This document shows positions 3,012-46,321 of a stretch of 64,000 nucleotides of DNA, one piece after another (the first letter of the stretch is position 1; each line of letters begins with the position of its first letter). Location: assembly GCF_965219595.1 (NCBI RefSeq), contig NZ_OZ244781.1, forward strand, positions 133,429 to 197,428. Reading direction: 5' to 3'. This DNA is from Candidatus Poriferisodalis sp. Its GTDB lineage: Bacteria; Actinomycetota; Acidimicrobiia; Acidimicrobiales; Poriferisodalaceae. Position numbers and translations under genes: made by a program. The notes under the pieces were generated by a model. It ran no database searches and was not told the DNA's origin. It saw nothing but the letters and a program-made list of their open reading frames with translations.

Positions 3012-3013
3012 AG

Positions 3014-4414
3014 CTAGAACTCCGCTCCCCAGTCGTGCTGTTCGAGCATCTGGCGGATGTGGCCCAGGAACCCTGCGGCGTAGCTGCCGTCGAATGCACG
3101 GTGATCCCAGCCCATCGCCAGGTGGCCCACCGAATGCACCACAATGCTCTCGTTGCCGAACCGGTCCGTGACCACGACTGGGCGCCGGGCCACGCCGTCG
3201 GTGGAGAGCACAGCCACCTGGGGCTGGTTGATGATGGCTGCCGTGGTGTAGGTGCCGAAGGATCCGTTGTTGGAGATGGTGAATGTGCCACCGCTGATGT
3301 CGTCGGGCGTCAGGCGCCGTTCCCGGGCACGCGCCGCGAGCTCGTTCATCGTGCGGGCCACGCCTCGCAGGCTGAACGAGTCGGCGTCTCGCAGCACCGG
3401 CACGATCAGCCCGTCGTAGTCGAGGTCCACGGCGACGCCGATGTTGCGACGACGCCAGATGCGCAGGCCGCCGTCCTCCACCGAGGCGTTCAGCCGTGGC
3501 CATTGGGCCAGGGCGTCAGCGACGGCAACCACGATGAACGGCAGGTAGGTGAGGCTGAATCCCTCCGCAGCCCGCCACGCCTCGCGGTGGGCCCGGCGCA
3601 CCTGCTCCACATTCTCGTAGTCGACCTCGACGACGGTGAGGGCGTGCGGCGACGTGGCCATGGAGTTCACCATGTGCTCGCCGGTTCGGCGGCGGATGTT
3701 GTTGAACGACTCGTAGCGCGAGTCGCCGTCGGTCCATTCAGCCGCAGCAGCGGCGGCGACCGGTGCTGGCACGGGCGGCGGACCGGGCGCCGAAGTGCGT
3801 TCGCCGGCAGCCGGTCTGGCCGGAGACGTCGTGGGGCCCGCACTCGCAGCTGCGGCACGTTGCCGCTCGTCGATGGCGTTGAGCACATCGGACCGGGTGA
3901 TACGACCGCCGACGCCCGTGCCCACGAGGGCGGCAGGGTCGAGGCCATGCTCTCGTACCAGGCGCCGGACGACGGGCGAGAGCAAGTGGCTGCCATGGTC
4001 GGTTGCAGGCCCGTTCGCTGCGCCGTTGGCCCGTCCAGCAGCCGCACTCGCAGCGACAGGTGCAGCGGCGGGCACCGCTGGCGGCTCAGCCGGTGCAGCC
4101 GTCGGAGCGGCAGCCGGTTCTGCTGGCGCGCCACTGGGCACGGGGATTGCCGCATCGGGCGGCGGCGCGACAGCGCCTTCGGGCAGCTCGACGATCGCCA
4201 GCACCGTCCCGACGTCCACGGTCTCGCCCTCGGGGACGCGTATCTCGGTGAGTACCCCCTCCATCGGCGAGGGCACTTCGCTGTCGACCTTGTCGGTCGA
4301 CACCTCGTAGAGCATCTCGCCCACCGAGATCGCATCACCCGGGTTCTTGAACCAGCGAGTGATGGTGCCCTCGGTGACGGTCTCGCCGAGCTGGGGCAGC
4401 ACCAAGTCAGCCAT
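3014..4414 (-). CDS. sucB: dihydrolipoamide acyltransferase, E2 component of a 2-oxoacid dehydrogenase complex
   Basis: Lipoyl domain (LPQLGETVTEGTITRWFK...EVSTDKVDSEVPSP), Ala/Pro linker, E3-binding domain (LSPVVRRLVREHGLDPAALVGTGVGGRITRSDV) and catalytic domain with DHRAFDG. Confidence 0.93.
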   Translation of the reverse strand: MADLVLPQLGETVTEGTITRWFKNPGDAISVGEMLYEVSTDKVDSEVPSPMEGVLTEIRVPEGETVDVGTVLAIVELPEGAVAPPPDAAIPVPSGAPAEPAAAPTAAPAEPPAVPAAAPVAASAAAGRANGAANGPATDHGSHLLSPVVRRLVREHGLDPAALVGTGVGGRITRSDVLNAIDERQRAAAASAGPTTSPARPAAGERTSAPGPPPVPAPVAAAAAAEWTDGDSRYESFNNIRRRTGEHMVNSMATSPHALTVVEVDYENVEQVRRAHREAWRAAEGFSLTYLPFIVVAVADALAQWPRLNASVEDGGLRIWRRRNIGVAVDLDYDGLIVPVLRDADSFSLRGVARTMNELAARARERRLTPDDISGGTFTISNNGSFGTYTTAAIINQPQVAVLSTDGVARRPVVVTDRFGNESIVVHSVGHLAMGWDHRAFDGSYAAGFLGHIRQMLEQHDWGAEF

Positions 4415-4453
4415 ATGGCACCCCAGAACGGCGCACGGCGGCTGCCGCCGAGC

Positions 4454-5917
4454 TCATCCGTGCAGACCTCGCCCGGTGAGCGAGAGCATCGTCTCGCCGA
4501 AGAGCTCTGACAGCGTGGGGTGGGGCTGCACCAGCGCCGCCACTTCGGCGACCGTGGCCTCCCAGTTCACCGCCAGGTAACCCTGACCGAGCTGCTCGGT
4601 GACCCACGGCCCCATCATGTGAACGCCGAGCACGCGCCCGGCAGTGCCGTCGGCCTCGCGCTCGGCCACGATCTTGACGAGGCCCTCGGTGTCGTTGACG
4701 ATCATCGCCCGAGAGTTGCCGGTGAAGCGGTGCTTGGACGTCACCACCTCGTAACCGGCTTCGCGAGCCGTCGCCTCGGTGAGCCCCGCAAACGCCACCT
4801 CGGGATGGCAGTAGATCGCCCAGGGCACGTTCGCGTAGTCGACCGGCGCCGGTTCTTCGCCGAGCATGTCTTTCGTGGCCACGATCGCCTCGGCGAACCC
4901 GACATGGGCGAGCTGCGGCGTATTGATGAGATCGCCGATGGCATAGACGCCGGCCATGGTGGTGCGGCACATCTCGTCGGCCACTACGAAACCCCGCTCG
5001 TCGAGCTTGACCTCGGTGCCGTCGAGGCCGAGATGATCTGCGTACGGTCGGCGTCCCACCGACACCACCACGGCATCGACCTCGAGGGACGCTTCGGTCA
5101 TGTCGCCGTCGCCGGAGCGGGGAGCGATCTCGTACTGCACGGTGGTTCCGCTGCCATCGGGAGTGTGGCCGGTGACCCGGCAGCCGGTCAGCACCGTGAT
5201 CCCCCGCTTGGAGAACGCCCGAGCGAGGGCCTTGGCGATGTCGGCGTCGACGCCGGGGATGATCTGCGGCGCGTATTCGAGGACGGTGACTTCGGCGCCG
5301 AGATCGGCCAGCATCGAAGCGAACTCGCAACCGATGGCGCCCCCGCCGATCACGGCCACACGGCTCGGCACCTCGTCGAGTGCCAAGACCTCGTCGGAGG
5401 TCATCACCAGCGTGCCGTCGCGATCGAATCCCGGCAGCGTGATCGGCACCGAACCCGCTGCGAGGAGCACCTGATCGCCCTGCAGCGTCTGGATGCCGGA
5501 CTCGCCTGCGTCGACCTCGACTGAACGGTCGGCACGCAGCCGTCCCGTGCCCTCGTAGGTCGCGACCTTGCGGCGACGCAGGAGCCCCTTCACCCCGGTC
5601 TCGAGGCCGTCGACGATGCGCTGCTTGCGGCCCTGCGAAACGGCGAAGTCCAGCTCAGGCGGCTCGACATTGACGCCGAATTCGGCGGCCTCGCCGACGG
5701 TGCGCCAGACCGCTGCTGTCTCGAGCAGTTCCTTGGCGGGAATGCAGCCTCGATGCAGGCACGTGCCGCCGAGCCGGTCGCGTTCCACGAGGGCGACGCT
5801 CATGCCTGCGGCGCCGGCGTACAGGGCTGCCCCGTAGCCCGCAGGGCCTCCGCCGATCACCACGAGGTCGTACCGAACCGGGCTGCCTGTCTCGCCGGAG
5901 TTCGTGTCATCTGCCAT
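4454..5917 (-). CDS. lpdA: dihydrolipoyl dehydrogenase (E3)
   Basis: Internal ATG at 5917 gives MADDTNSG..YDLVVIGGGPAGYGAALYAA (FAD fold), GGTCLHRGCIPAK redox disulfide and a C-terminal HPTLSE interface motif. The longer upstream ORF extension is low-complexity. Confidence 0.93.
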   Translation of the reverse strand: MADDTNSGETGSPVRYDLVVIGGGPAGYGAALYAGAAGMSVALVERDRLGGTCLHRGCIPAKELLETAAVWRTVGEAAEFGVNVEPPELDFAVSQGRKQRIVDGLETGVKGLLRRRKVATYEGTGRLRADRSVEVDAGESGIQTLQGDQVLLAAGSVPITLPGFDRDGTLVMTSDEVLALDEVPSRVAVIGGGAIGCEFASMLADLGAEVTVLEYAPQIIPGVDADIAKALARAFSKRGITVLTGCRVTGHTPDGSGTTVQYEIAPRSGDGDMTEASLEVDAVVVSVGRRPYADHLGLDGTEVKLDERGFVVADEMCRTTMAGVYAIGDLINTPQLAHVGFAEAIVATKDMLGEEPAPVDYANVPWAIYCHPEVAFAGLTEATAREAGYEVVTSKHRFTGNSRAMIVNDTEGLVKIVAEREADGTAGRVLGVHMMGPWVTEQLGQGYLAVNWEATVAEVAALVQPHPTLSELFGETMLSLTGRGLHG

Positions 5918-6095
5918 CGCGCGACGAGGGTACGCCGCGTTTCCGACCGGTTCGCACCGCGGCCCCGCAGCATGCACTTCGCCCGAGCACGGCAGTGCTA
6001 CAGCGCGATGAGCACCTGGACTGCGAACGCCATCAGGATGACCATCCCGGTCACGAGTGCCAAAGCAATCAATGCCCGGGTGCTCACCGGGCTGA

Positions 6096-6761
6096 ATGTA
6101 TCCCGCGCTATTGCATCCTGGACCCAGGGATAGGCTCGGCAAGGTGACGCATCCGCGGTACCGAGCGGTCATCGTGCTGCTGGCCGGGCTGGCAGGTCTC
6201 GGCGTTCTGGCCAGCTGCGGGAGCGTTGAGGTCAGCGTGTCCCGGGATACGGCGGCCACGGCATCTGCTGCCGAGGTGCCCACGACCACCTCCGGCGGCA
6301 CCGACACCGGTGCGGCTGTCGAGCCAGCAGCGACGACTGCCCCGGTCACCCAGGAGACCCGGGCCGAGATCCTGCTGCTGGAAGGCGCGCTGCTCGACGG
6401 GCAGCAGTTCGATCTGGCTGCAGCGGCTGGCAACGATGTCCTGCTGTGGTTCTGGGCGCCTTGGTGACCGGCGTGCAATCGTGAAGCGCCTGCGGTCGCA
6501 GCGCTGAAGGCAGAGCACGGCGACAGCTTGGTCCTGGTGGGCGTTCCGGGCGGCGACTCCCAGGATTCCTACCGGAAGTTCGTGGCCAAGCACCAGCTCG
6601 GCGACGTCCCGCAGCTCAGCAACGAGGACGGCGATCTGTGGGACCAGCTCGGCAACAGCTACCAGCCGAGGTGGATGCTGGTGCGGGCCGACGGAAGCAT
6701 CGAGCGCGGCGGCGGCACGCCCCCGCCCGACATCGTTCACGACGCGCTCACGCCCGCCTGA
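6096..6761 (+). CDS. TlpA/ResA-like thiol:disulfide oxidoreductase lipoprotein, predicted selenoprotein (in-frame TGA 6465-6467 read as Sec, motif W-U-P-A-C)
   Basis: ORFs 6096..6467 and 6528..6761 share one frame and are interrupted only by the TGA. Signal peptide plus lipobox LASC; ...DVLLWFWAPW[TGA]PACNREAP...LVLVGVPGGDS...YQPRWMLVRADGSI is a complete thioredoxin-fold TlpA pattern. Alternative start GTG 6144. Confidence 0.7.
6485..6505 (+). promoter_or_regulatory. candidate bacterial SECIS hairpin downstream of TGA 6465
   Basis: A-GCG-C-CUGC[GGUC]GCAG-CGC-U: 8 bp in two helices, one bulged C on the 5' side and a GGUC apical loop about 29 nt after the UGA. Confidence 0.55.
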
Positions 6762-20527: not shown

Positions 20528-21901
20528 ATGAGCCAGTCATTCACTGCTGGGACCAGCGACGAGAACCGTCGCACCGGTCAGACCGTCGAGCTGCTGCAAA
20601 CGCTGATCCGCAACGAGTGCGTCAACTACGGCACGGCCGAATCCGGCGGCGAAGTCCGCAACTCCGACACCATCCAGGCCTACCTCGAAGGCGCCGGACT
20701 GGATCTCGAGGTGTTCGACGCGGCGCCTGGCCGGCGATCGCTGGTGACCCGCATCGAAGGCAGCGACCCGAACGCTCCCACCCTGTGCCTCATGGGCCAC
20801 ACCGACGTGGTGCCGGTGAATCGTGACGGCTGGAGCCGCGACCCCTTCGGCGGGGAGCTCATCGACGGCGAAGTCTGGGGCCGCGGCGCCGTCGACATGC
20901 TCAACCTCACGTCCTCGATGGCGGTGGCGATGCGGCACCTGGCCCTGACCGGCTACCGGCCCAAGGGCGACCTCATCTATTTCGCCTGTGCCGACGAGGA
21001 AGCCGGCTCTGCTTATGGCGCTCGCTGGATGGCCGAGAACCACTGGGATGTCATCGGGGCCGACTACGTGCTGACCGAGAACGGCGGCCTGCACTCGGGG
21101 TCGCCCGACGCCCCGTTCATCGGCATGAACATCGGCGAGAAGGGCGTGGCGTGGCGGCGACTGCGAGTGCGAGGCGTGCCCGGCCACGGCTCACGTCCGT
21201 TCCGGCAGGACAACGCGCTGGTGAAGGCCGCCGCAGTAGTGCACCGGATCTCGGAGTACCGGCCACCGCCGAAGTTCCACGAGCTGTGGCGCGAGCAGGT
21301 CGACACGCTCGGCGTCGACGACGAAACCAAGGCCATCATGCTCGACGAGAACCTCATCGAGGATTGGCTCGACGCCCATCCGAGCGCGTCGGCGGCCGCT
21401 CACCTGTACTCGTGCACCCACACATCGTTCTCACCGAATGTCCTCGGGGCGCCCACCGCCATGAAGACGAACGTCATCCCTGATCACGTCGACATCGAGG
21501 TGGACGTGCGGACGCTGCCCGGCGAGGGCGCTGCGGAGGTGCAGGCGCATCTCGACGAGGCGCTCGGTGATCTCGCCGACCAGGTCGAGGTGGAGATCAT
21601 CATGAACGACCCGGCATCGCTGAGCCGGGTCGAGACGCCGCTGTGGGACGCGCTGGAGGTGGCGGTAGGGCGCCGCTTCCCGACTGCCCGGCTGACGCCC
21701 CAGCTCATCATCGGGTTCACCGACTCCCGGGTGTATCGCGACATGGGGGCAGTCGCATACGGCGCCGGCCTGTTCAGCCCCGAGCTCGACGGCGCCGACT
21801 TCGGCGCCCGGTTCCATGGGAACGACGAGCGCATCGACATCGAGTCGCTAGCGCTTACCACCCAGCTGTGGCTCGACGTGGTCGACAGCCTCTGGGGCTA
21901 A
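20528..21901 (+). CDS. M20 family metallopeptidase/deacylase
   Basis: ATG 20528. LCLMGHTDVVP, ADEEAGS and GHGSRP motifs. Confidence 0.88.
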   Translation: MSQSFTAGTSDENRRTGQTVELLQTLIRNECVNYGTAESGGEVRNSDTIQAYLEGAGLDLEVFDAAPGRRSLVTRIEGSDPNAPTLCLMGHTDVVPVNRDGWSRDPFGGELIDGEVWGRGAVDMLNLTSSMAVAMRHLALTGYRPKGDLIYFACADEEAGSAYGARWMAENHWDVIGADYVLTENGGLHSGSPDAPFIGMNIGEKGVAWRRLRVRGVPGHGSRPFRQDNALVKAAAVVHRISEYRPPPKFHELWREQVDTLGVDDETKAIMLDENLIEDWLDAHPSASAAAHLYSCTHTSFSPNVLGAPTAMKTNVIPDHVDIEVDVRTLPGEGAAEVQAHLDEALGDLADQVEVEIIMNDPASLSRVETPLWDALEVAVGRRFPTARLTPQLIIGFTDSRVYRDMGAVAYGAGLFSPELDGADFGARFHGNDERIDIESLALTTQLWLDVVDSLWG

Positions 21902-21974
21902 GGGCGGGGCCTACGGGCTGACCGGGAGGGGTCCGGCGCCGGTTGGGGCATTTGGGGCCAGCCATACACTGCGG

Positions 21975-22772
21975 TTGATGGCATTGGCCAACACAGGGCC
22001 GGACGCCGCATCCGGTACACCGCTCTTCGAGATCGACGACTTGGGGGTGCGGGCCGTCGACGGCCCGCAGATCCTGCGCGGCGTGGATCTGGTGGTCAAC
22101 GCGGGCGAGTGCCACGCCATCATGGGCCCCAACGGGTCGGGCAAATCGACCCTGGCCACCACGATCCTGGGCTCGCCGGAGTACGAGGTGACCGGCGGGG
22201 AGATCCGCTACCGGGGCGACGACGTGGCCGAGTGGGATCCCGATGCCCGCTCGAAGGCCGGGCTGTTCCTGGCGTTCCAGTACCCGCAGCACATCCCAGG
22301 CGTGTCGGTGCGCAATTTCCTGCGCCAAGCGGTCTCGGCACGGCGGGGCGAAGACGTGTCGGCCATCGAGATCTACGTCGCCATGGGCGAGTGGATGTCG
22401 CGGCTGGGCATGGACGAGTCGTTCATGGACCGCTACCTCAACGAGGGCTTCAGCGGCGGCGAGCGCAAGCGCAATGAGATCCTGCAGCTTGCCCTGCTCG
22501 AACCTGACGTAGCCGTGCTCGACGAGACAGATTCGGGCCTCGACATCGACGCGCTGCGGGTGGTGGCCACCGGACTGCAGCAGGTCCGCGCCGAGCGGCC
22601 GCACATGGGCGTGGTGCTCATCACGCACTACGAACGCCTGCTGGGCGAGATCGAACCCGACTACGTCCACGTGCTGGTCGACGGGCAGATCGTGGCCTCG
22701 GGCGGCCCGGAGCTCGCCGCCGAGCTGGAACGAGACGGCTACGAGCCCTTCGAGCAGAAGGCGGCGGCGTGA
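21975..22772 (+). CDS. sufC: Fe-S cluster assembly ATPase SufC (canonical copy)
   Basis: GPNGSGKSTLA, LAFQYP..IPGV, NEGFSGGERKRNEILQ and LDETDSGLDIDAL. 4-nt overlap with sufS. Confidence 0.93.
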   Translation: MMALANTGPDAASGTPLFEIDDLGVRAVDGPQILRGVDLVVNAGECHAIMGPNGSGKSTLATTILGSPEYEVTGGEIRYRGDDVAEWDPDARSKAGLFLAFQYPQHIPGVSVRNFLRQAVSARRGEDVSAIEIYVAMGEWMSRLGMDESFMDRYLNEGFSGGERKRNEILQLALLEPDVAVLDETDSGLDIDALRVVATGLQQVRAERPHMGVVLITHYERLLGEIEPDYVHVLVDGQIVASGGPELAAELERDGYEPFEQKAAA

Positions 22773-24016
22773 GCGCCCGGGTCAGCCCCGAGATCGACGG
22801 GGCAGTGAAGGCGCAGTTCCCGCTGCTCGAGCGCAGCGTCCACGGCCGTCCGATCGTCTATCTCGACTCTGCGGCGTCGTCGCAGAAGCCGATGGCGGTG
22901 CTCGACGCCATGGACGACTACTACCGCACCGTCAATGCCAACGTCCATCGCGGCGCGTACGAGATCGCCGCGGCCGCGACAGAGCAGATGGAACAGGCAC
23001 GGGCCGACGTTGCCCGGTTCATCTCGGCCCCGAGCGCGGACGAGATCGTGTTCACCAAGAACGCCACCGAGGCCATGAACCTGGTGGCCCGCTCGTGGGG
23101 CGGCTCGAACCTCGGTCCGGCCGATGCGATCGTGCTCACCGAGATGGAGCACCACGCCAACATCGTGCCGTGGCACATCCTGGCCGCCGAGCGGGGCTTC
23201 GAGATCCGCTGGATTCCCATCACCCACGACGGCTGCTTGGACCTCACCGACCTCGACCGCCTGCTCGACGGGGCGAAGCTGCTGTCGGTGACCGCCATGA
23301 GCAACGTGCTCGGCACGCTCAACCCGATCCCCCGCCTCGCCGCCGCGGCTCACGACGCCGGTGCGCTGCTCAGCGTGGACGCCAGCCAGTACGTGCCGCA
23401 CCTGCCCACTGATGTGGGGGAACTGGGCGCCGACTTCATGGTGTTCACCGGGCACAAGATGTGCGGGCCGACCGGTGTGGGCGTGCTGTGGGCTCGCATG
23501 GAGCTGCTCGACGCCATGCCGCCGTTCCTGGGCGGCGGCGAGATGATCCTCGACGTCACCAAGGAAGGCTTCCGGCCCAACACGGTGCCGCACAAGTTCG
23601 AGGCGGGCACCCCGCCCATCGCCGAGATCGTGGGCCTCGGGGCCGCGGTGAGATACCTCGAGGGGCTGGGCATGGATGCCGTGCGAGCCCACGAGGTCAG
23701 CCTCACCGGCTACGCCCTGCGGACGCTGACCGACCGCCACGGCGACGACATCACCGTGCACGGGCCTTCGGAGCCGGCGCAGCGCGGTGGCGTGCTGTCG
23801 TTCGTGTACCGCGACGTGCACCCGCACGACATCTCCCAAGTGCTCGACCAGAGCGGCGTGTGCGTGCGCGCCGGCCACCACTGCGCCAAGCCGCTCATGC
23901 GATGCCTCGGCGTCTCTGCCACCACACGGGCCTCGCTGTACGTGTACAACGACACTTCCGACATAGATTCGCTGGCCGATGCGCTTGACGAGGTCGGCGC
24001 ACTGTTCGGCCACTAG
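22769..24016 (+). CDS. sufS: cysteine desulfurase SufS
   Basis: HHANIVPW, FTGHKMCGPTGVGVLW (PLP lysine) and RAGHHCAKP (catalytic Cys loop). Confidence 0.93.
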   Translation: MSARVSPEIDGAVKAQFPLLERSVHGRPIVYLDSAASSQKPMAVLDAMDDYYRTVNANVHRGAYEIAAAATEQMEQARADVARFISAPSADEIVFTKNATEAMNLVARSWGGSNLGPADAIVLTEMEHHANIVPWHILAAERGFEIRWIPITHDGCLDLTDLDRLLDGAKLLSVTAMSNVLGTLNPIPRLAAAAHDAGALLSVDASQYVPHLPTDVGELGADFMVFTGHKMCGPTGVGVLWARMELLDAMPPFLGGGEMILDVTKEGFRPNTVPHKFEAGTPPIAEIVGLGAAVRYLEGLGMDAVRAHEVSLTGYALRTLTDRHGDDITVHGPSEPAQRGGVLSFVYRDVHPHDISQVLDQSGVCVRAGHHCAKPLMRCLGVSATTRASLYVYNDTSDIDSLADALDEVGALFGH

Positions 24017-24046
24017 AGGCGACGGACCGGGACGAAGCAGGATCCG

Positions 24047-24547
24047 ATGGCTGGGCTCGAAGACCTGTACCGGGAGATCATCCTCGATCACTACCGGAAC
24101 CCGCGCAATCGCGGCGAGCTGGAATGCCCGCCGGCGCATCGCAGCGAGGGCTTCAACCCGCTGTGCGGGGACGAGGTGGTGCTGACCTTCGAGATGGACG
24201 GCGATGTGGTGACCGATCTTCGTGTCGGCGGCTACGGCTGCTCCATCAGCCAGGCATCCGCGTCGATGATGTCGGCTGCGGTGATCGGCAAGACCATCGA
24301 TGAGATCCGCGACCTGACTCGGTCCTTCAAGGCCATGATGTCGATTCACGAGGAGTCGATCGGCGGCGACGGGACCGAAGCGCTCGACGGAGCTGGTGAG
24401 TCAGACGGCTCGACAGACGGCGCTCTGCGGCTGGGCGATCTGGAGGCCTTGCGGGGCGTGGTGAAGTTCCCCGTGCGCATCAAGTGCGCCACCCTCGGCT
24501 GGAACGCGCTCGCCACCGGCCTCGACGAGACGGTCGGTGCAAGTTGA
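24047..24547 (+). CDS. sufU: SUF-type sulfur acceptor/scaffold SufU
   Basis: YRNPRN, NPLCGD, GYGCSISQAS and KCATLGWNAL with the SufU-type insertion before the last Cys. Confidence 0.9.
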   Translation: MAGLEDLYREIILDHYRNPRNRGELECPPAHRSEGFNPLCGDEVVLTFEMDGDVVTDLRVGGYGCSISQASASMMSAAVIGKTIDEIRDLTRSFKAMMSIHEESIGGDGTEALDGAGESDGSTDGALRLGDLEALRGVVKFPVRIKCATLGWNALATGLDETVGAS

Positions 24548-25806: not shown

Positions 25807-25824
25807 CCTCGCTTCATGGCATCA
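25791..25824 (+). repeat. left copy of a 34-bp direct repeat (30 bp perfect, 25795-25824)
   Basis: CAC(C)CCCCGCCTCTAGCCTCGCTTCATGGCATCA spans the monooxygenase stop (TAG 25804-06) and the ATG of the RCC1 gene. It recurs at 29181-29214. Confidence 0.95.
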
Positions 25825-27744
25825 TGCGCTCGCTGCACAGCACCGAGCGCCCGCAATCAGCGGCGGTACAGCCACAAGCTGCTGGCTCTGGCGCTCGCAG
25901 CCGCCGTGGCACTCGCCGCATGCACCTCTTCATCGACTGAATCGCCCGCCGCTGAAACCGGCGTCGGCGACGTCCCATCGGCTGCAACGGCCCCCGGGAC
26001 CTCATCGCCCGATGCGGTCGCAGTAGCCGACGAGAACGCCTCAGCGCCGACCACCGGCACTGTCGCAGCACATGACAGCGCGGCAGGTACCGAAGCAGGC
26101 GACGCTCAACATCTGCCGACCGATGCGCCGTCGACCGGCTACATCGCCGTCAGCGTCGGTACTTCCCATGCGTGCGCCATCACCGTCACGGGCGAGATCG
26201 AGTGCTGGGGCGATCGGACCGACCGGCGGACGGAGGCACCGTCGGGTACCTACACCGCTGTCTCGGCGGGCCGACGCCACTCATGCGCCATCGATACAGC
26301 AGGCGGCCTCACGTGCTGGGGGCGCTACAGCTTTCATCGTCCACCGCCCATCCTCTTCAACGACGGCATCAACCCTTTTGTCGCGATCGATGTCGGCGAG
26401 GACCGCGCATGCGCCGTCAAGGCCACCAGCCATGTGAGGTGCTGGGACGGCGCGATGGAGTCGTCCTCGAAGAGCATGTCGACGTACACCGTCCGTGCCC
26501 TAAAGCCGCACCAGGACGTCGCCGTGGGCTCGGCGAGCACCTGCGCTCTCACTCAAGACAACCAGGTGGACTGCTGGAGCACGTGGTCCGATGAACCACC
26601 TACGCCGCAGCGGCTGCGCGGCGGAACCTACGAGTCCATCGAAGGAGATGCTCAGCACGGTTGTGCGCTCTCGCATGAGGGGCACCTCACATGCTGGCCC
26701 TTCTCCGTCGAGCAAGAACTCAAGCAGGCCGATGGCAGCGAGACGACGTTCATCGACGTGTCTGCCGTCGAGGGGCATGCGTGCGCGGTGACGTCTGAAC
26801 GGGAACTCGCATGCTGGCGTCAATACGGCGGCGCTCATACACGCTCTGGCGAGTACGAGTCTGTCTCCGTGGGCCCCCAGAATGCATGCGCGATCAGAGT
26901 GGACCACCGCCTCGTCTGCTGGGGCTACGCGTACACCGTCGCCGAGAACCCGCCCGCTGACTCATTCACTGCAGTTTCTGCAGGCCGCGGGCGCACGTGC
27001 GGATTGACCGTAGGCGGCATGGTGCGCTGTTGGGGCTCAGCAGAGTGGGACAGCTCGGATGCCGGTTCCTCGGAATTCACATCAATCAGCGCCTCGTGGG
27101 ATCATCACTGCGCAATCAACAAGAAGGCCGAACTCCGTTGCTGGGGACTCAGCTACGCCGGTCGGTTCGACGTCCCATCGGGTAGCTACATCACTGTTGC
27201 CACCAACGAACACCACACCTGCGCCATCACGACACAGGATGAGCTCCGGTGCTGGGGCTTCGACGAGCACGGCCAGACCGACAACCCTCCGGGTCGATAC
27301 TCGGCTGTCGCCACCGGACGGAGGTTCACCTGCGCCATCGGGATCGACGGTCACGCCGCGTGCTGGGGCGACAGCCGGCACGGACGCACCGACCCCCCGC
27401 CTGGCACCTACACCTCCATCGCGGCGGGCTGGTGGCATGCCTGCGGCATCCGAGACGGCGGCGCTGCTGTGTGTTGGGGCCGCAACGACTACGGCCAGAT
27501 GGACATCCCCGAGGGCACGTACTCGCGCATTGCCACGAACGAACGCCACACCTGCGCGATCACAACCGAGGGAGAACTTCGCTGCTGGGGTTTCAACGAC
27601 ATGGGCCAGCTCGATGCACCCCCGGGGCGCTACCTCGAGGTCACTGCGGGCCAAGATCACACCTGCGCTCTCACCGCCGACAAGCGGGCCGTCTGCTGGG
27701 GCCACGGAGGTCGCAGCAAGTTTCGAGCAGATCGGACTGGCTAG
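25816..27744 (+). CDS. RCC1-like repeat lipoprotein (14 blade repeats)
   Basis: Signal plus lipobox LAAC, then 14 repeats of ~40 aa of the form H.CA[ILV]....G...CWG (e.g. HACAITVTGEIECWG ... HTCALTADKRAVCWG). Confidence 0.9.
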   Translation: MASCARCTAPSARNQRRYSHKLLALALAAAVALAACTSSSTESPAAETGVGDVPSAATAPGTSSPDAVAVADENASAPTTGTVAAHDSAAGTEAGDAQHLPTDAPSTGYIAVSVGTSHACAITVTGEIECWGDRTDRRTEAPSGTYTAVSAGRRHSCAIDTAGGLTCWGRYSFHRPPPILFNDGINPFVAIDVGEDRACAVKATSHVRCWDGAMESSSKSMSTYTVRALKPHQDVAVGSASTCALTQDNQVDCWSTWSDEPPTPQRLRGGTYESIEGDAQHGCALSHEGHLTCWPFSVEQELKQADGSETTFIDVSAVEGHACAVTSERELACWRQYGGAHTRSGEYESVSVGPQNACAIRVDHRLVCWGYAYTVAENPPADSFTAVSAGRGRTCGLTVGGMVRCWGSAEWDSSDAGSSEFTSISASWDHHCAINKKAELRCWGLSYAGRFDVPSGSYITVATNEHHTCAITTQDELRCWGFDEHGQTDNPPGRYSAVATGRRFTCAIGIDGHAACWGDSRHGRTDPPPGTYTSIAAGWWHACGIRDGGAAVCWGRNDYGQMDIPEGTYSRIATNERHTCAITTEGELRCWGFNDMGQLDAPPGRYLEVTAGQDHTCALTADKRAVCWGHGGRSKFRADRTG

Positions 27745-31347: not shown

Positions 31348-32247
31348 TCAGCCCAACTCGTCGAGCGGGTCTGCCCAGGGATCGGCGAAAGGATCGTCGG
31401 CAGGGGTCGATCCGACCCCACCGGAGAGAGGGCTGCCGAGCCCTCCGATGGACACTGCCACGCCGGCATCGGGCTCTTCGGGCAGGTAGGGCGTGTAGCC
31501 GTCGGCTTCGAGTGCCTCGGCAAGCTCGGGACCGCCTGAGTCGACGATGCGGCCGTCCACGATCACGTGGACCTCGTCGGGCCGGAGGTACTCCAGCACG
31601 CGGGTGAAGTGCGTGATGGCCAGCACGCCCAGGCCCGCCTCGGTGAGCGCTTCGATGCGGTTGGCGCAGGCGCGCAACGCGTCGATGTCGAGGCCGCTGT
31701 CGATCTCGTCGAGGATGGCGATGCGGGGCTGCAGCACGGCGAGCTGGACGGTCTCGTTGCGCTTCTTCTCGCCGCCCGACATGTCGACATTCAGCGGCCG
31801 CGCCACCAGCTCAGCCTTCAGCCCGACAGCGGCCGCCTCGGCTTCGAGCAGGCTGCGGGTGCGCTCAAGCTGGTCATCGCTCGGGCCGTCATCGCCGGCC
31901 CGCAGCGCAAGCGCCTCGGCCAGTGCTTGGGCGGCCGAGACGCCCGGCACCTCGGTCGGATGCTGCATGGCCAGGAACAGCCCGGCCTGCGCCCGCTCCC
32001 ACGGCGCCAGGCTCAGCACGTCGACGCCGTCGAGGGTGACCGATCCGGCAGTGACCTCGTAGCCCGGGCGGCCCATGACAACGTGCGCCAGCGTGCTCTT
32101 GCCGGAGCCGTTGGGCCCCATGACTGCGTGAACTCGCCCGGAGGACACTTCGAGATCCACGCCCTGGAGGATCTCGGTGTCGCCCGCCGATGCGTGCAGT
32201 CCCTCGATACGAAGCGTGTGCGCGGCCTCGGCGGTCGGAGCGCTCAT
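31348..32247 (-). CDS. sufC: SufC-like ATPase, divergent second copy with a ~50-aa C-terminal extension
   Basis: ATG 32247 overlaps the Rieske stop (ATGA). GPNGSGKSTLA, LAMQHP.EVPGV, SGGEKKRNETVQ and LDEIDSGLDIDAL, followed by the tail ...GSTPADDPFADPWADPLDELG. Confidence 0.85.
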   Translation of the reverse strand: MSAPTAEAAHTLRIEGLHASAGDTEILQGVDLEVSSGRVHAVMGPNGSGKSTLAHVVMGRPGYEVTAGSVTLDGVDVLSLAPWERAQAGLFLAMQHPTEVPGVSAAQALAEALALRAGDDGPSDDQLERTRSLLEAEAAAVGLKAELVARPLNVDMSGGEKKRNETVQLAVLQPRIAILDEIDSGLDIDALRACANRIEALTEAGLGVLAITHFTRVLEYLRPDEVHVIVDGRIVDSGGPELAEALEADGYTPYLPEEPDAGVAVSIGGLGSPLSGGVGSTPADDPFADPWADPLDELG

Positions 32248-32576
32248 GGCAGCACCACCGCCACGCCGTCGTCGCCAGTGCGAATCTCGTACACCGGGAC
32301 CGGCTGGGTGGCGGGGAAGCAGTTCGGACGGCCCGTTCGCAGGTCGAAGCTCGACGAGTGCTGGGGGCATTCCAGCGCGCACTCATCGGGCCACACCCAG
32401 CCGTCGGCCAGCGAGTAGTTCTGGTGACTGCACTGGTCGCCGATGGCGTAGAAGTCGTCGCCGATGCGTGCGAGCGCGATGCGGTGACCCTCGACGTCGA
32501 AGCGTCGGGCCTCGCCGTCGGGCACGTCGTCGTGCTGGCACAGCACGACAGTGCGGGCATCGTCAGCTGTGCTCAT
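32244..32576 (-). CDS. Rieske [2Fe-2S] ferredoxin-like protein
   Basis: CSHQ...(17)...CPQH ligand boxes. 110 aa, in the usual actinobacterial position between sufD and sufC. Confidence 0.88.
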   Translation of the reverse strand: MSTADDARTVVLCQHDDVPDGEARRFDVEGHRIALARIGDDFYAIGDQCSHQNYSLADGWVWPDECALECPQHSSSFDLRTGRPNCFPATQPVPVYEIRTGDDGVAVVLP

Positions 32577-32634
32577 CGCACCGCCTCCATGGCGGTCGAA
32601 CTCATTGCACCGCCTCCGTGGCGGTCGAACTCGT
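32577..32634 (-). repeat. 29-bp tandem duplication (2 copies, 3 mismatches) in the sufD-Rieske spacer
   Basis: CGCACCGCCTCCATGGCGGTCGAACTCAT / TGCACCGCCTCCGTGGCGGTCGAACTCGT. Each copy holds an ACCGCC-N5-GGCGGT hairpin. Confidence 0.9.
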
Positions 32635-33884
32635 CACAGCGCCGCCGTGAAGTCGGCGTCTGACACCAGCTCGTCGATGCGCTGGCGCACCGATGCCGAG
32701 ATCTGCTCAGACGGCAGCGCATCGAGGACTTCGTCGAAGAACCCGCGCACCACGAGCGCCTCGGCAACGTCAGTCGGCACGCCCCGGCTCTCGAGGTAGA
32801 AGCGCTGGTCGGCGTCGACCGGGCCGATCGACGAGGCGTGACTGCACTGCACGTCGCTGTTCTCGATCTCGAGGTTCGGCACCGACTCGGCCCATGCGTT
32901 CGGCGACAGCTTCAGGTTCCGGTTGGTCTGATCGGCCTGGACGTTCGAGGCGTCGGCCTCGATGCGGATCAGCCCGGTGTAGACGGCCCGGGCGTAGTCG
33001 TCGACCGCCCCCTTGAACAGCAGGTCAGATGTGGTGTGCGGTGCGACGTGGGTCTGGAACGTGCGGAAGTCGAGCGTGGAGGTGCCACGGCCGAAGTACA
33101 CGGCGTCGATCTCGCTGTGGCCGCCGCGGCCGGTCATGTCGATGCCGATGCGGGCCCGGGCGTAGTCGCCGCCCATCGCCACATGACCGATCCTCAGGTT
33201 GGCATCGCGGCCCGCGTCTGCGCAGAGGTTGGCGATCTGCCAGGCGGCCTCGCCCAGTTCCTGCACGGTGACGTGGCCGAGATGTGCGCCGTCGCCCACG
33301 CTCAGCTCGGTGAGCGGGCAGATGAGCGCGGGCGTGTTCCCGCCGGTGTGGTGCTCGATCACGGTGGCCTGGCTGGTGCGGCCAGCCATCACGACGAGTC
33401 GAGGGAACCATGCCAGCCCGTCGACGTCGGTGTGGACGTGCACCACGATGGGATCGGTCAGCACCGCCTTCGGATCGATGCTGACCACCACCGGAGCCGA
33501 GGCGAGTGCGAGGTTCCAGTCGCCGAAGACATCCGGCCCCTCGGGCGCCACCGTGCCGATCAAGTCGTCGGCTCCGCTGCCGAGCGTGTCGACGCGGACA
33601 CAGTCGGCTCGCACCGACACGTCGAGGACTGCACCGTTGGCGATGTGAACGACCGCTGCGGCGCCGTCGTCGACACCGCTCATCAGGCCCGCCGGCCCCG
33701 CCGCTCCCCCGGGCGCTGCGAAGGCATACCGCGCCGGGTCGAGATCGTCGATCGGGGTGTAGCGCCACACCTCTTCGGTGAATGACGGCTGGCCCGCCGC
33801 AACCGCCCGATCTGCTGCGGCGCGACGCCGCTTGGCCAACGCGTCGGAGCCGTCGAGCGCGTCGACGAGGTCGGGGCTGAACAC
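32634..33884 (-). CDS. sufD: Fe-S cluster assembly protein SufD
   Basis: 416 aa. C-terminal beta-helix region with ...QTNRNL.LS..A...S.P.LEI...DV.CSH...IG..D..Q.FYLESRGV; suf operon context. Confidence 0.88.
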   Translation of the reverse strand: MFSPDLVDALDGSDALAKRRRAAADRAVAAGQPSFTEEVWRYTPIDDLDPARYAFAAPGGAAGPAGLMSGVDDGAAAVVHIANGAVLDVSVRADCVRVDTLGSGADDLIGTVAPEGPDVFGDWNLALASAPVVVSIDPKAVLTDPIVVHVHTDVDGLAWFPRLVVMAGRTSQATVIEHHTGGNTPALICPLTELSVGDGAHLGHVTVQELGEAAWQIANLCADAGRDANLRIGHVAMGGDYARARIGIDMTGRGGHSEIDAVYFGRGTSTLDFRTFQTHVAPHTTSDLLFKGAVDDYARAVYTGLIRIEADASNVQADQTNRNLKLSPNAWAESVPNLEIENSDVQCSHASSIGPVDADQRFYLESRGVPTDVAEALVVRGFFDEVLDALPSEQISASVRQRIDELVSDADFTAAL

Positions 33885-33950
33885 GCTGCGGAGGCTACCG
33901 GCGCGCCCGTCAGGGCCTAGCGGGCCGGAGCGGCCCGCTCCGAGCCGTGA

Positions 33951-34364
33951 TCAAACCTCGCCGTCCTTGCGATCGTCGCGGTCCGAACGACGCTTCACAC
34001 GCTTTGCCTTGCGGGCAGCCTTGCGATTCTTGGACCTGATGCGGATGCCCTTGCGCCGGGACTGCTCCGCTGCAACCTCTTCGAGGATGCGCGGACCGGC
34101 CTCGTTCAGGATGTCCTCGGCAGCGTCGAGGAGGTCGCCGATGGACTCATCCACGCCGATGCTCTCGGGCTCGGTGGCGAAGTTGCGTACACCCAGCGAG
34201 CCGTGCTGCCAGCCGGCGTCAAGCCGTCGGGGCGAATACGACGGACAGTCCTCGGGGCAGCGCCACGGGGCCTCGGGGGCCAAGTCGAGGTTGCACTTCC
34301 GCACGGTGTCGCCGTTGGGGTAGGACCGGCTCTCGTAGTGGCGACAGTTGGTCCGCATCGGCAT
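33951..34364 (-). CDS. hypothetical 4-Cys protein with highly basic C-terminal tail
   Basis: MPMRTNCRHYESRSYPNGDTVRKCNLDLAPEAPWRCPEDCPSY (C7, C24, C36, C40), then an acidic linker and the RRKGIRIRSKNRKAARKAKRVKRRSDRDDRK tail. Confidence 0.7.
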   Translation of the reverse strand: MPMRTNCRHYESRSYPNGDTVRKCNLDLAPEAPWRCPEDCPSYSPRRLDAGWQHGSLGVRNFATEPESIGVDESIGDLLDAAEDILNEAGPRILEEVAAEQSRRKGIRIRSKNRKAARKAKRVKRRSDRDDRKDGEV

Positions 34365-34378
34365 GGCAGTCGCCTCCT

Positions 34379-35254
34379 TCAGCGCTGCGAAATCGCCTCG
34401 GCCAGCGCTATGGCCCGCCGAGCCTCGTCAACATGAAGATTCTCGACCATCTTGCCGTCTACGGTCACCACTCCACGGCCATCTGCCACCGCCGCCTCGA
34501 ATGCCTCGATCACCTGGCGGTGGAAGTCGAGCTCGTCGAGGCTCGGCGAGAAGGCCTCGTTGGCGGGATCGACCTGGCTGGGGTGGATGAGCGTCTTGCC
34601 GTCGAAGCCCAGGTCGGCGCCTTGGCGGCACACAGCCGCGAATCCGTCGGCATCGCGGATGTCGTTGTAGACGCCGTCGAGGGCGGTGACGCCGGCCTCC
34701 CGGGCAGCCACCAAGCAGGTTGCGAGGTGCGGCACCAGAGCAGCCCGGTCGGGCGTGATGGTGGCGTGCAGTTCCTTGGCCATGTCGTTGGTGCCCATGA
34801 CTACCGCTTCGGTTCGCTCGAAGCCGGCGATCTCGCGGGCATGGGCAATGCCCGCCGGTGTCTCGATCATTGCCCAGATGCGCACCGAATCGGGGGCGCC
34901 CGCGGTGTCGAGCAGGTCGGACACGGCAGCGAGATGTGCGGCGCTCGACACCTTGGGAATGACGACGGCCGAGGGAGCTGCTGCACCCGCGGCCCTGATG
35001 TCGTCGCGACCCCACGGGGTGTCGAGACCGTTGCAGCGGATGGTCAGCTCGCGGTAGCCGTACTCGCCTGACGATGCGGCGGCGCACGCGCCCTCGCGGG
35101 CGGCTTCCTTGGCATCGGGCGCGACCGCATCCTCGAGATCGAAGATGAGCGCGTCGGCGCCGATGGTCTTGGCCTTCTCCAGCGCCCGGGCGTTGGCCGC
35201 CGGCATGTAGAGCACCGATCGGCGCGGGCGGGGGCTGGCGGCGGCAGCGCTCAT
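34379..35254 (-). CDS. HpcH/CitE-family protein, malyl-CoA thioesterase (Mcl2)-like
   Basis: RRSVLYMPAANARALEKA...DALIFDLEDAVAPDAK...IRCNGLDTPWG...WAMIETPAG...GTNDMAKEL...DGVYNDIRD...GFDGKTLIHPSQ. CitE fold closest, from memory, to Rhodobacter Mcl2. Confidence 0.7.
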   Translation of the reverse strand: MSAAAASPRPRRSVLYMPAANARALEKAKTIGADALIFDLEDAVAPDAKEAAREGACAAASSGEYGYRELTIRCNGLDTPWGRDDIRAAGAAAPSAVVIPKVSSAAHLAAVSDLLDTAGAPDSVRIWAMIETPAGIAHAREIAGFERTEAVVMGTNDMAKELHATITPDRAALVPHLATCLVAAREAGVTALDGVYNDIRDADGFAAVCRQGADLGFDGKTLIHPSQVDPANEAFSPSLDELDFHRQVIEAFEAAVADGRGVVTVDGKMVENLHVDEARRAIALAEAISQR

Positions 35255-35271
35255 ATGGAGTCCAGACTCTC

Positions 35272-36341
35272 TCAGGCAGTCTCGAGCCCGTAGGCGGCGG
35301 CCAGCTCAGGGTCGGCCGCCGACAGGTCACGAGCGAGCTGCAGCACCACCCGGCACTGCTTCACCGTGGCATCGTCCTGCATCTTGCCGTCGATCATCAC
35401 GGCGCCGGTGCCGTCGCCCATCTCGGTCACCACCCGCTGCGCCCACGCCACCTCGGCGGGCTCGGGGCTGAAGACCCGCTTGGCGATGGCGATCTGGCTG
35501 GGATGCAGGCTCCACGCGCCCACGCAGCCCAGCAGGTAGGCGTTGCGGAACTGGTCCTCGCAGCCGATGGGGTCGGCGATGTCGCCGAACGGCCCGTAGT
35601 AGGGCAGGATCCCTGCGGTGCCGCAGGCGTCCACCATGCGGGCCAGCGTGTAGTGCCACAGATCCTGCTGGAAGGCAGTGCGAGCATCGTTGCCCGCGTC
35701 GCCGTCGCTCTCGGGCACCGGGTCGGTGCGCACCAGGTAGCCGGGGTGCCCGCCGCCCACCCGGGTGGTCTTCATGCGGCGGTCGGCCGCCAGGTCGGCC
35801 GGTCCCAGCGACAGGCCCTGCATGCGGGGGCTGGCCAGGCAGATCGACTCCACGTTGGCCACGCCGCGGGCGGTCTCGAGGATTGCGTGCACCAGCAGCG
35901 GCTGCTCGATGCCCACCCGGGCTTCAAGCTGAGCCAGCAGCCGGTCCACGTAGTGAATGTCTTCGGGGCCTTCCACCTTAGGCACCATGATCACGTCGAG
36001 CTTGTCGCCGATCTCGTGGCACAGCGCCCAGACATCGTCGAGGAACCATGGCGAGTCGAGGCTGTTCACCCGAGTCCACAGCTGCGTGTGACCGCGCTCC
36101 CACGCCTTGCCCACCTCGATCAGCCCGGCCCGGGCGGCGTCCTTGCTGTCGGCCGACACGGCGTCTTCGAGGTTGCCGAGCAGCACGTCCACCGTGGGGG
36201 CGATGTCGGGCACCTTGGCCCGCATCCGCTCATTCGACGGGTCGAAGAAGTGGATCATGCGAGACGGCCGGAAGGGGATCTCGCGCAGCGGAGCAGGCGC
36301 CCCGAGCGCCAGCGGGGCGAAGAAGTCTTTTGGACTGCGCA

Positions 36342-36342
<1 letters not shown>
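35272..36342 (-). CDS. mcl: L-malyl-CoA/beta-methylmalyl-CoA lyase (Mcl1-type)
   Basis: ATG 36342 overlaps the sufB stop (TGATG). [116 protein letters not shown] and [11 protein letters not shown] match Chloroflexus/Rhodobacter Mcl almost block for block. Confidence 0.85.
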
Positions 36343-37754
<1,412 letters not shown>

Positions 37755-37812
37755 AACCTCAGCCTAACGCCGCCCCCGTCGGGGTCCGAGTGCAGGGCGC
37801 GGCGCGGAGCGG

Positions 37813-44690: not shown

Positions 44691-44705
44691 CAAGGCCAAG
44701 CTCGC

Positions 44706-44809
44706 GGGCCGCTTGGGCCTGCGTTTCCCGCTCTTGTTCGCTCCGCTCACGGGCCGCTCGGGCCTGCGTTTCCCGCTCTTGTTCGCTCCGCTCACGGGCC
44801 GCTTGGGCC
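44706..44809 (+). repeat. 45-bp unit repeated 2.3x in tandem; shares its core with the dispersed repeats at 12748 and 57535
   Basis: GGGCCGCT(T/C)GGGCCTGCGTTTCCCGCTCTTGTTCGCTCCGCTCAC at 44706-44750 and 44751-44795, with a partial copy at 44796-44809. Confidence 0.95.
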
Positions 44810-44866
44810 CGGGGCGGCTACAGTCGATCAGGACGTGCCCACCGGATCCAACACAGGGGGGACCAC

Positions 44867-45385
44867 ATGAGCACTGTCGTCTTGGACCCGACCAACGAAG
44901 CGGCACCCGCCCATCGTGAGCGGGTCACCCGGCCCGATTCGCTGGACGGCCTCACCGTGGGCCTGCTGGACATCAGCAAGCCCCGCGGCGACCGCTTCCT
45001 GAACCGGCTCGAGGAACGGCTGACCGAGCGGGGCCTGCGCGTCGAGCGCTACTCCAAGCCCACGTTCACCAAGCCGGCCCCGGTCGACCTGCGCCACGAG
45101 ATCGCCACCAAGTGCGACGTGGTGATCGAAGCGCTAGCCGATTGAGGCAGCTGCACGTCGTGCAGTGTGCACGACATCGCTGATCTGGAACGCCGCGGCA
45201 TCCCGTCGGTGTTCGTCGCCACCGTCCAGTTCGTCGACGGGGCCGAGGTACAGGGCAAGGCGCTCGGCTTCGACCCGGCGGCCGTATGGGTGGAGCATCC
45301 CATCCAGGACCGCACCGACGACGAGATGGTCGCCATCGCTGACAAGGCCTTCGACGAGCTGATCGAACAGCTCGTAGCTGCTTGA
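44867..45385 (+). CDS. UGSC-family protein, predicted selenoprotein (in-frame TGA 45143-45145 read as Sec)
   Basis: ORFs 44867..45145 and 45167..45385 share one frame. Read-through gives ...VVIEALAD[TGA]GSCTSCSVHDIADLERRGIPSVFV.T..F, i.e. the U-G-S-C motif that names this family. Confidence 0.72.
45157..45175 (+). promoter_or_regulatory. candidate bacterial SECIS hairpin downstream of TGA 45143
   Basis: GUCGUGCA-GUG-UGCACGAC: 8-bp perfect stem starting 14 nt after the UGA with G/U in the apical loop. An alternative 6-bp hairpin lies at 45151-45165. Confidence 0.5.
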
Positions 45386-45421
45386 GCTACGAGCCCAACC
45401 AGCACAGCGTGGCTGCCTGAG

Positions 45422-46321
45422 TTAACCGAGACGGAGTTGGTCGCCGACTGCGGTGATCAAGCCCTCGGCGGTCAGTTCTTCGACAAGACGTTGAGCGCGT
45501 GCTTCGTCGTGCTCGAGTCTCATCGCCGCGGCAGCCTGTTCCGTCGGGAGCGAACCACCTGACAGCGCTGCGAGCAGGCGGCCCCTGGCCTGGCGGTCGC
45601 TGCCTTCGAACGGTGCCTGCCGCGCACTGACCCCGGCGCTGCGGTCGGCTGGATCTGGTTGACCCGAAGGCTCCGGGCCCAATACCTCAACCGCCCACGC
45701 ACACCACCGCTGTGCAGGGCACTGGCCGCAGCTCGGATCTCGCTTGGTGCAGACCTGTGCGCCGAGATCCATCATCGCCTGGTTCCATGCCCAGCTCTCC
45801 CCCGCAGGCACCAATTCATCGGCGATGCGCTGGGCCTCCCGGGGGCTCAGCCGACGGCCCTGCCAGCGGGCCAGGATGCGACCCACGTTGGTATCGACCA
45901 CGCCGGTATCGATGCCGAAGGCGAAGGCTTGCACTGCCCGAGCGGTGTAGGGACCCACGCCCGGCAGCGCCAGCAGGCCGTCCAGATCGGCGGGCACCCG
46001 GCCGCCGTGGCGCTCGCTGATGATCGCCGCCGTCCGCCAGAGGTTGCGAGCGCGCCGGGGGTAGCCCAGTCCCTGCCACACAGCCAGCACTTCGGCCAGC
46101 TTCGCTGCCGCGCACTGCTCCGGTATCGGCCAGCACTCGGCAAACGTCTCGAAGTACGGCAGCACCCGCTCCACCTGGGTCTGCTGCAGCATGACCTCCG
46201 AGACCAGCACGAGCCACGGGTCGCGGGTGCGCCGCCACGGCAGATCTCGCCGCTCGGCCGCCCACCAGCCGATCAGTTCGGCGTGGCGCGAGCTACGCGC
46301 ATCCGACCCAGCGTGGCGCAA
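45422..46321 (-). CDS. mutY: A/G-specific adenine DNA glycosylase
   Basis: DLPWR..RDPW.VLVSE.MLQQTQV, GLGYPRRARNL and the 4Fe-4S loop CTKRDPSCGQCPAQRWC. Confidence 0.9.
   Translation of the reverse strand: MRHAGSDARSSRHAELIGWWAAERRDLPWRRTRDPWLVLVSEVMLQQTQVERVLPYFETFAECWPIPEQCAAAKLAEVLAVWQGLGYPRRARNLWRTAAIISERHGGRVPADLDGLLALPGVGPYTARAVQAFAFGIDTGVVDTNVGRILARWQGRRLSPREAQRIADELVPAGESWAWNQAMMDLGAQVCTKRDPSCGQCPAQRWCAWAVEVLGPEPSGQPDPADRSAGVSARQAPFEGSDRQARGRLLAALSGGSLPTEQAAAAMRLEHDEARAQRLVEELTAEGLITAVGDQLRLG

Follow-up and report, generated by a model that had tools for sequence, protein, structure and literature searches.

According to the criteria applied to bacteria (the fdhF-type element and the bSECISearch consensus), a SECIS element is a stem-loop located 3' of the UGA codon, with an apical loop that contains G/U. 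Operons of the grd type, which specify a selenoprotein B, encode both trxB and trxA. Selenoprotein B itself carries a UxxC motif (PMC9312934). A further selenoprotein family, which Zhang & Gladyshev termed the 'UGSC-containing protein' in 2008, is among the most abundant selenoprotein families of aquatic environments, and a thioredoxin-like fold was suggested for it at that time (PMC2398784). The function of this abundant aquatic family is uncharacterised in the literature (PMC2398784; PMC13188914), which agrees with what a preliminary description of the DNA considered here had said of it, namely that UGSC proteins form a known selenoprotein family without a known function.

The DNA in question (termed here the window) is a 64-kb stretch from 'Candidatus Poriferisodalis', a sponge-associated lineage of Acidimicrobiia. 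Within it the preliminary description had noted two open reading frames, 44867..45145 and 45167..45385, that share one frame and are separated by a single in-frame TGA at 45143-45145. The sequence agrees with this, and also bears out the read-through product, which runs MSTVVLDPTNE...KCDVVIEALAD-U-GSCTSCSVHDIADLERRG...EQLVAA and ends at a second TGA; its predicted selenocysteine (Sec)-containing peptide is EALAD-U-GSCTSCSVHDIADLER. This stretch is very probably one UGSC-family selenoprotein gene in which the UGA is decoded as Sec, because of the position of the U-G-S-C motif, the conservation of the TGA, the existence of distant cysteine (Cys) forms and the selection acting on a downstream hairpin at the RNA level; its product would have a redox role together with the product of the gene upstream (termed here the partner). 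The features concerned are collected in Table 1.

Table 1. Positions of the UGSC gene, its proposed decoding signals, the neighbouring partner gene and a second candidate selenoprotein gene within the window.
Feature	Position	Strand	Remarks
Partner gene, 498 aa	43194..44690	+	N-terminal thioredoxin-fold module followed by a ~330-aa Cys-containing domain
Intergenic spacer with 2.4 tandem copies of a 45-nt unit (95% matches)	44700..44809	.	Between the partner and UGSC genes
UGSC-family selenoprotein coding sequence (predicted), complete	44867..45385	+	172 codons: Met start, Sec = codon 93, stop TGA 45383-45385; PF24696 and NF041046 scores
In-frame UGA, predicted to be decoded as selenocysteine	45143..45145	+	U of the U-G-S-C-T-S-C motif; TGA in 80/80 related loci; Cys in homologues
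SECIS-type hairpin, 8-bp stem and GUG loop	45157..45175	+	Within codons +4 to +10; covariation, synonymous entropy ~0, RNAalifold
Second candidate selenoprotein, lipoprotein-like redoxin	ORF about 6140-6761, TGA 6465-6467	+	...VLLWFWAPW-U-PACNREAP...

Assignment to the UGSC family, which had been proposed from the motif, was upheld by profile searches in which U was replaced by C: the read-through product scores 150.9 bits against Pfam PF24696 (UGSC; cut-off 25), covering model positions 2-171 of 172, and 153 bits against NCBIfam NF041046 (UGSC family (seleno)protein; cut-off 125), covering positions 1-146 of 147. Both curated cut-offs are exceeded and the match spans the UGA junction; the window gene thus adds one more member to a family already catalogued. 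In GenBank (about 120 contigs) the gene is instead split into two entries, MCY3585364.1 (92 aa) and MCY3585363.1 (72 aa), each annotated as "hypothetical protein". Similar divisions recur across the family: an exhaustive profile search yielded 2,422 cluster representatives, many of which are fragments of ~94 aa that end exactly at the Sec position and others of which are C-terminal fragments of ~70 aa, the pattern that gene callers leave when they split Sec genes.

A scan at one genome per species identified 525 relatives, of which the best 80 loci were analysed. These derive mostly from Acidimicrobiia, share 65-99% protein identity with the window protein and have chromosomes of 'Candidatus Poriferisodalis' as their nearest members. 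TGA occupies the identical codon in all 80 of them, inside the near-invariant segment VIEALAD-U-GSC[TVA][ST]CSVHD, and the coding sequence is strongly conserved on either side. Cys stands in place of Sec in the full-length database homologues P0002, P0004, P0006, P0007 and P0010 (as ADCGSC), and at the DNA level the corresponding codon is TGT in loci L081 and L084 and TGC in locus L082. The Asp codon directly before the UGA (codon -1, 45140-45142) is GAT in 68 of 73 sequences, where GAC accounts for 80% of the Asp codons in the window; this preference suggests that the nucleotide (U) immediately preceding the Sec codon is under selection as part of its context.

Downstream of the UGA the preliminary description had placed a perfect 8-bp hairpin with G/U in its apical loop. 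It is present in the sequence as GUCGUGCA-GUG-UGCACGAC, its stem separated from the UGA by 11 nt and its loop lying 22-24 nt from the U. Among 73 distinct sequences, which were used for the analysis of codons and covariation, the codons from +4 to +11 are essentially frozen: ACG in 69/69, TGC in 72/73, AGT, GTG and GAC each in 73/73, and ATC in 70/72. Synonymous entropy over these codons is therefore close to zero, as compared with 1.5-2.1 bits in the four- and six-fold degenerate codons that flank them, and the invariant AGT is a codon used for just 2.4% of the Ser residues in the window. Across the alignment 97.4% of the hairpin cells are paired. The sole stem pair that varies often (columns 33 and 45) covaries, being GC in 61-62 sequences (tcG...caC), AU in 9 (tcA...caT) and GU in 2, with no mismatches; none of 500 shuffles attained the observed score, and controls in which the partner column was slid along the alignment collapsed. 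Because this covariation concerns one pair, whose 9 AU sequences probably reflect one or two evolutionary events, the main weight falls on the suppression of synonymous changes and on the loss of the hairpin in Cys forms: the distant loci L081 (TGT) and L082 (TGC) no longer have it, and their peptide has changed from SV to AI or AV. RNAalifold independently recovers six core pairs of the 8-bp stem. Judged by these patterns in aligned sequences, the hairpin behaves like a SECIS element.

The palindrome might instead be a protein-binding site at the DNA level or a by-product of the conserved peptide TSCSVHD, a reading that draws on the high conservation of this peptide, on there being one variable stem pair and on a folding energy that is unremarkable for a sequence of 68% GC (z = +0.69 relative to dinucleotide shuffles). 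Nevertheless this is improbable: the frozen synonymous positions, among them the disfavoured AGT, go beyond what conservation of the peptide accounts for; G.U pairs are tolerated, which argues for a sense-strand RNA rather than for symmetry in duplex DNA; and the hairpin and the SV residues have both been lost in L081 and L082, where the codon is TGT or TGC.

A 6-bp hairpin at 45151-45165, which had been described as a mutually exclusive alternative to the 8-bp hairpin, is likewise present, but the notion that it is the functional element had to be rejected: no compensatory change supports it, and in the 9 tcA sequences it is disrupted by a G-to-A substitution for which the 8-bp hairpin, by contrast, has a compensating partner. 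Covariance modelling of the region downstream of the UGA, as had been advised, brought no confirmation, since Rfam SECIS models gave no match in the window at the gathering score and none within 44800-45500 at E <= 10; Rfam, however, covers bacterial SECIS elements poorly, and these usually escape its models (bioRxiv 10.64898/2026.04.03.716425). A separate observation concerns the UGSC gene of locus L084 (947-1486), on a 2.3-kb metagenome contig, in which TGT (Cys) replaces the Sec codon and yet an intact hairpin is retained; this looks either like a change from Sec to Cys that happened very recently or like an error in base calling.

That the UGA is recoded by some means other than Sec (i.e., through near-cognate insertion of Trp or Cys, or as a reassigned stop) is highly improbable. 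Such recoding could be read from the W, R or G that occupies this position in certain database homologues (P0001, P0005, P0003 and P0011), but these forms lie mostly on short (<1.1 kb) metagenome contigs, and around the G form (P0011), which is on a 98-kb contig, the partner matches in two frames, consistent with a frameshift; a simpler explanation for all of them is gene calling under an alternative code, or errors in the sequence. The stop codons of 40 confident genes in the window comprise 23 TGA, 13 TAG and 4 TAA, and the UGSC gene itself ends in TGA; because TGA is thus the commonest ordinary stop, reassignment of the codon is excluded. Moreover, the UGA aligns with Cys, the usual counterpart of Sec, and is followed by a conserved hairpin at SECIS distance. 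A further point against non-Sec recoding comes from an Ilumatobacteraceae metagenome-assembled genome (L070), in which selA, selB and the tRNA-Sec gene (selC) lie directly upstream of the thioredoxin-family/UGSC gene pair, within 1371-6510; here selA scores 385 bits (cut-off 268), selB scores 280 bits (cut-off 242), and tRNA-Sec lies at 4384-4477 on the minus strand. This arrangement occurs in L070 only and in none of the other 79 loci.

The remaining results on Sec machinery are as follows. The 64-kb window contains no tRNA gene; selA, selB and selD are absent among the ~45 window proteins scanned; tblastn with an E. coli SelD sequence gave no hit either in the window or in the related loci; and the SelA of L070, when used as a query, retrieved only other lineages among its top 120 matches. 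Related Actinomarinales, in turn, are reported to possess the full Sec machinery (bioRxiv 10.64898/2026.04.03.716425). The window holds a second candidate selenoprotein gene, listed in Table 1, whose Redoxin, AhpC-TSA and Thioredoxin_8 domains span its UGA and which has a hairpin with a GGUC apical loop ~20 nt downstream of that codon; this is presumably the other selenoprotein to which the preliminary description alludes. The gene arrangement in L070, the reported machinery of Actinomarinales and this second candidate lend good indirect support to Sec decoding in the genome of the window. Together with the UGSC gene, this candidate implies that the sponge-associated Acidimicrobiia lineage uses selenocysteine.

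The view embodied in the GenBank entries, that the two halves are separate small genes, with products of 92 and 72 aa, or the remains of a gene inactivated by a nonsense mutation, could also appeal to the lack of Sec machinery in the window, but it is scarcely credible, given that the TGA persists in 80/80 loci at identities as low as 65%, flanked on either side by sequence under strong purifying selection, that no start signal is conserved between the halves, that the Cys forms are single continuous genes, and that the HMM match crosses the junction. In none of the relatives do the halves occur as independent genes. The earlier proposal of a genuine Sec codon rather than two small genes has accordingly held up, on the strength of the HMM match, the TGA in 80/80 loci, the Cys homologues and the constraint on the hairpin.

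The UGSC gene is tied to its partner by adjacency, by an inverted gene order and by fusions, and in one Cys-form operon also to trxB. The partner, which PGAP labels 'thioredoxin family protein', has a thioredoxin module in its first ~110 residues, with an invariant CPTC at positions 30-33. Its remaining ~330-aa domain is marked by the motifs GWSDGLPLVPPT..., AGCRPEY..., GQGNRANSTIGRA... and GGGRPGEVDR... (also written GWSDGLP...AGCRPEY...GQGNRAN) and is invariant at many positions; among these, Cys223 (in AGCRPEY) and Cys321 (in FCFAE) recur in the distant homologues compared, L082 and P0333. Profile and sequence searches revealed no counterpart of this domain in Pfam, NCBIfam or the PDB. For the partner, at least 8,000 relatives were retrieved from the database, the top 120 listed sharing 62-100% identity; its C-terminal part is thus a sizeable domain family that awaits a model.

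The partner gene lies directly upstream of, and co-directional with, the UGSC gene in 78 of the 80 loci, and the majority of relatives have the two genes directly adjoining or overlapping each other; in the Cys-form loci L081-L083 the overlap is 4 nt. In L082/L083 (2576-5522), the genes follow one another in the order trxB, partner, UGSC (Cys form), with overlapping stop and start codons, and trxB, for a thioredoxin-disulfide reductase, scores 384.5 bits against TIGR01292 (cut-off 343). A tctC/tctA transporter pair lies divergently upstream of this operon, and a GntR regulator gene lies downstream. In L085 the order is inverted: the UGSC gene is followed by a stand-alone form of the ~330-aa domain (E = 5e-48). 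In P0317 and P0333 a Cys-form UGSC protein is fused to this domain (E = 5e-64, with 37% identity over 292 aa) and the thioredoxin module is absent, an architecture that is probably the 'UGSC/Unknown_1 fusion' named in 2008 (PMC2398784). Two other apparent partner-UGSC fusions were discarded: P0172 merely has an over-extended N-terminus, and P0243 looks like a frameshift-ridden translation. The repeat unit of the spacer between the two genes in the window occurs once each in L003 and L028, which are the closest relatives, and is absent from the rest of L001-L029; the spacer repeat probably represents filler peculiar to the lineage, with no function in the locus.

The fold of the UGSC protein was modelled on P0004, a natural Cys form that is 64% identical to the window protein, has the same ADCGSCTSCSVHD motif and here serves as its stand-in. 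The AF2 model (pLDDT 91.8, pTM 0.85) consists of five beta-alpha units in a flavodoxin-like arrangement, with Cys95 (the equivalent of Sec) in the beta3-alpha3 loop and with Cys98 and Cys101 on the first turns of helix alpha3 (96-111). In Foldseek comparisons with the PDB, the best matches of this model were generic flavodoxin-like structures (TM <= 0.52), with no thioredoxins among the 50 listed; when UGSC was searched against the PDB by sequence and by profile, no meaningful match emerged. To the extent that the predicted structure of P0004 is representative, the thioredoxin fold suggested in 2008, in which the redox motif would stand at the N-terminus of helix alpha1, thus finds no support. 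For the partner, AF2/Foldseek and PDB searches match the thioredoxin module only.

By the standard bacterial mechanism, SelB, in complex with GTP and Sec-tRNA(Sec), would bind the hairpin at 45157-45175 and thereby deliver Sec to the UGA at 45143, while the second TGA, which is followed by no such hairpin, would bring about termination. Gene context and motifs further suggest a redox-relay model for the product. In this model, UGSC would be the small, redox-active subunit of a two-component oxidoreductase, its U-x-x-C-x-x-C segment providing selenol and thiol groups, and the C-terminal domain of the partner would be the catalytic or substrate-binding part. Electrons would pass from NADPH to thioredoxin reductase, from there to the CPTC module of the partner, then to the selenenylsulfide of the UGSC U-x-x-C motif, and finally to a substrate held on the ~330-aa domain. 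A more specific proposal, possible though rather doubtful, is that UGSC is the Sec-bearing small subunit of an unrecognised but widespread reductase of two components, driven by thioredoxin reductase, whose large subunit is the ~330-aa domain: it would then be comparable to a minimal version of the glycine/proline reductase protein B systems. Sec would attack a substrate bound to the partner domain, and the CPTC module would serve to recycle the selenenylsulfide formed in this step.

Elsewhere in the window, the segment 25800-30400 has a weak or shifting codon-position GC signal and contains a 645-aa ORF (25807-27744) and others that lack NCBIfam matches, unlike the strongly coding housekeeping genes that surround it; the segment may be an island of foreign origin or one that evolves fast. 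There are also two suf-type sets of genes for Fe-S assembly, at 21852-24547 and 31348-37763, with two copies of sufC within 10 kb: one set comprises sufC-sufS-sufU on the plus strand, and the other comprises sufC, sufD and sufB on the minus strand, with citE-like genes between sufD and sufB.

What this analysis adds is a correction of the annotation, in that two "hypothetical proteins" become one selenoprotein; clear evidence for a SECIS-type element; and a conserved module of UGSC, partner and thioredoxin that serves as a handle on function. The UGSC family has been listed since 2008 without a function, and its coupling to one uncharacterised domain and to thioredoxin and thioredoxin reductase modules opens that function to experiment.

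Compared with the UGSC family as catalogued (NF041046/PF24696), the window gene has a full-length score, U-G-S-C at the family position, an alternation of Sec and Cys among homologues, and an origin within aquatic or host-associated Actinomycetota; it differs in nothing essential, being a copy from a sponge-associated member of the Acidimicrobiia that GenBank carries as two hypothetical proteins. Its hairpin shares with bacterial SECIS elements of the fdhF type a location within the coding sequence directly 3' of the UGA, a loop at a distance of ~22 nt, G/U in that loop and conservation at the RNA level. It differs from them (as judged by the consensus criteria) in having a very short loop of 3 nt, at the small end of the range, a stem that is perfectly paired and shows no evident bulged U, and no match in Rfam.

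The comparison with selenoprotein B is looser. Four models, those of GrdB, GrdF, GrdH and the PB subfamily, give a weak local match between UGSC residues ~79-123 and model positions ~333-380 (best E 4e-5), and this match is weaker still in the fusion proteins; TIGR01917 reaches 22.7 bits (cut-off 602) over 45 residues only, and PF07355 is not reported at E <= 0.1. Membership of the selenoprotein B (GrdB/PrdB) family is therefore rejected, the scores being far below cut-off and the similarity local to the surroundings of Sec; a distant relationship confined to the Sec-bearing segment is possible from this local similarity. Like the glycine/sarcosine/betaine reductase systems represented by GrdB, GrdF and GrdH (TIGR01917, NF040794 and TIGR01918), the UGSC system has a UxxC motif, a second, larger subunit, and trxB and a thioredoxin module encoded alongside. 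GrdB, however, is a protein of ~430 aa whereas UGSC has 172; GrdE and PrdA have no detectable similarity to the partner domain; and the hosts of GrdB are anaerobes that ferment amino acids, whereas those of UGSC are aerobic aquatic or symbiotic Actinomycetota. By analogy, UGSC and its partner may thus resemble the thioredoxin-dependent glycine and proline reductases in outline, though not as members of the same family.
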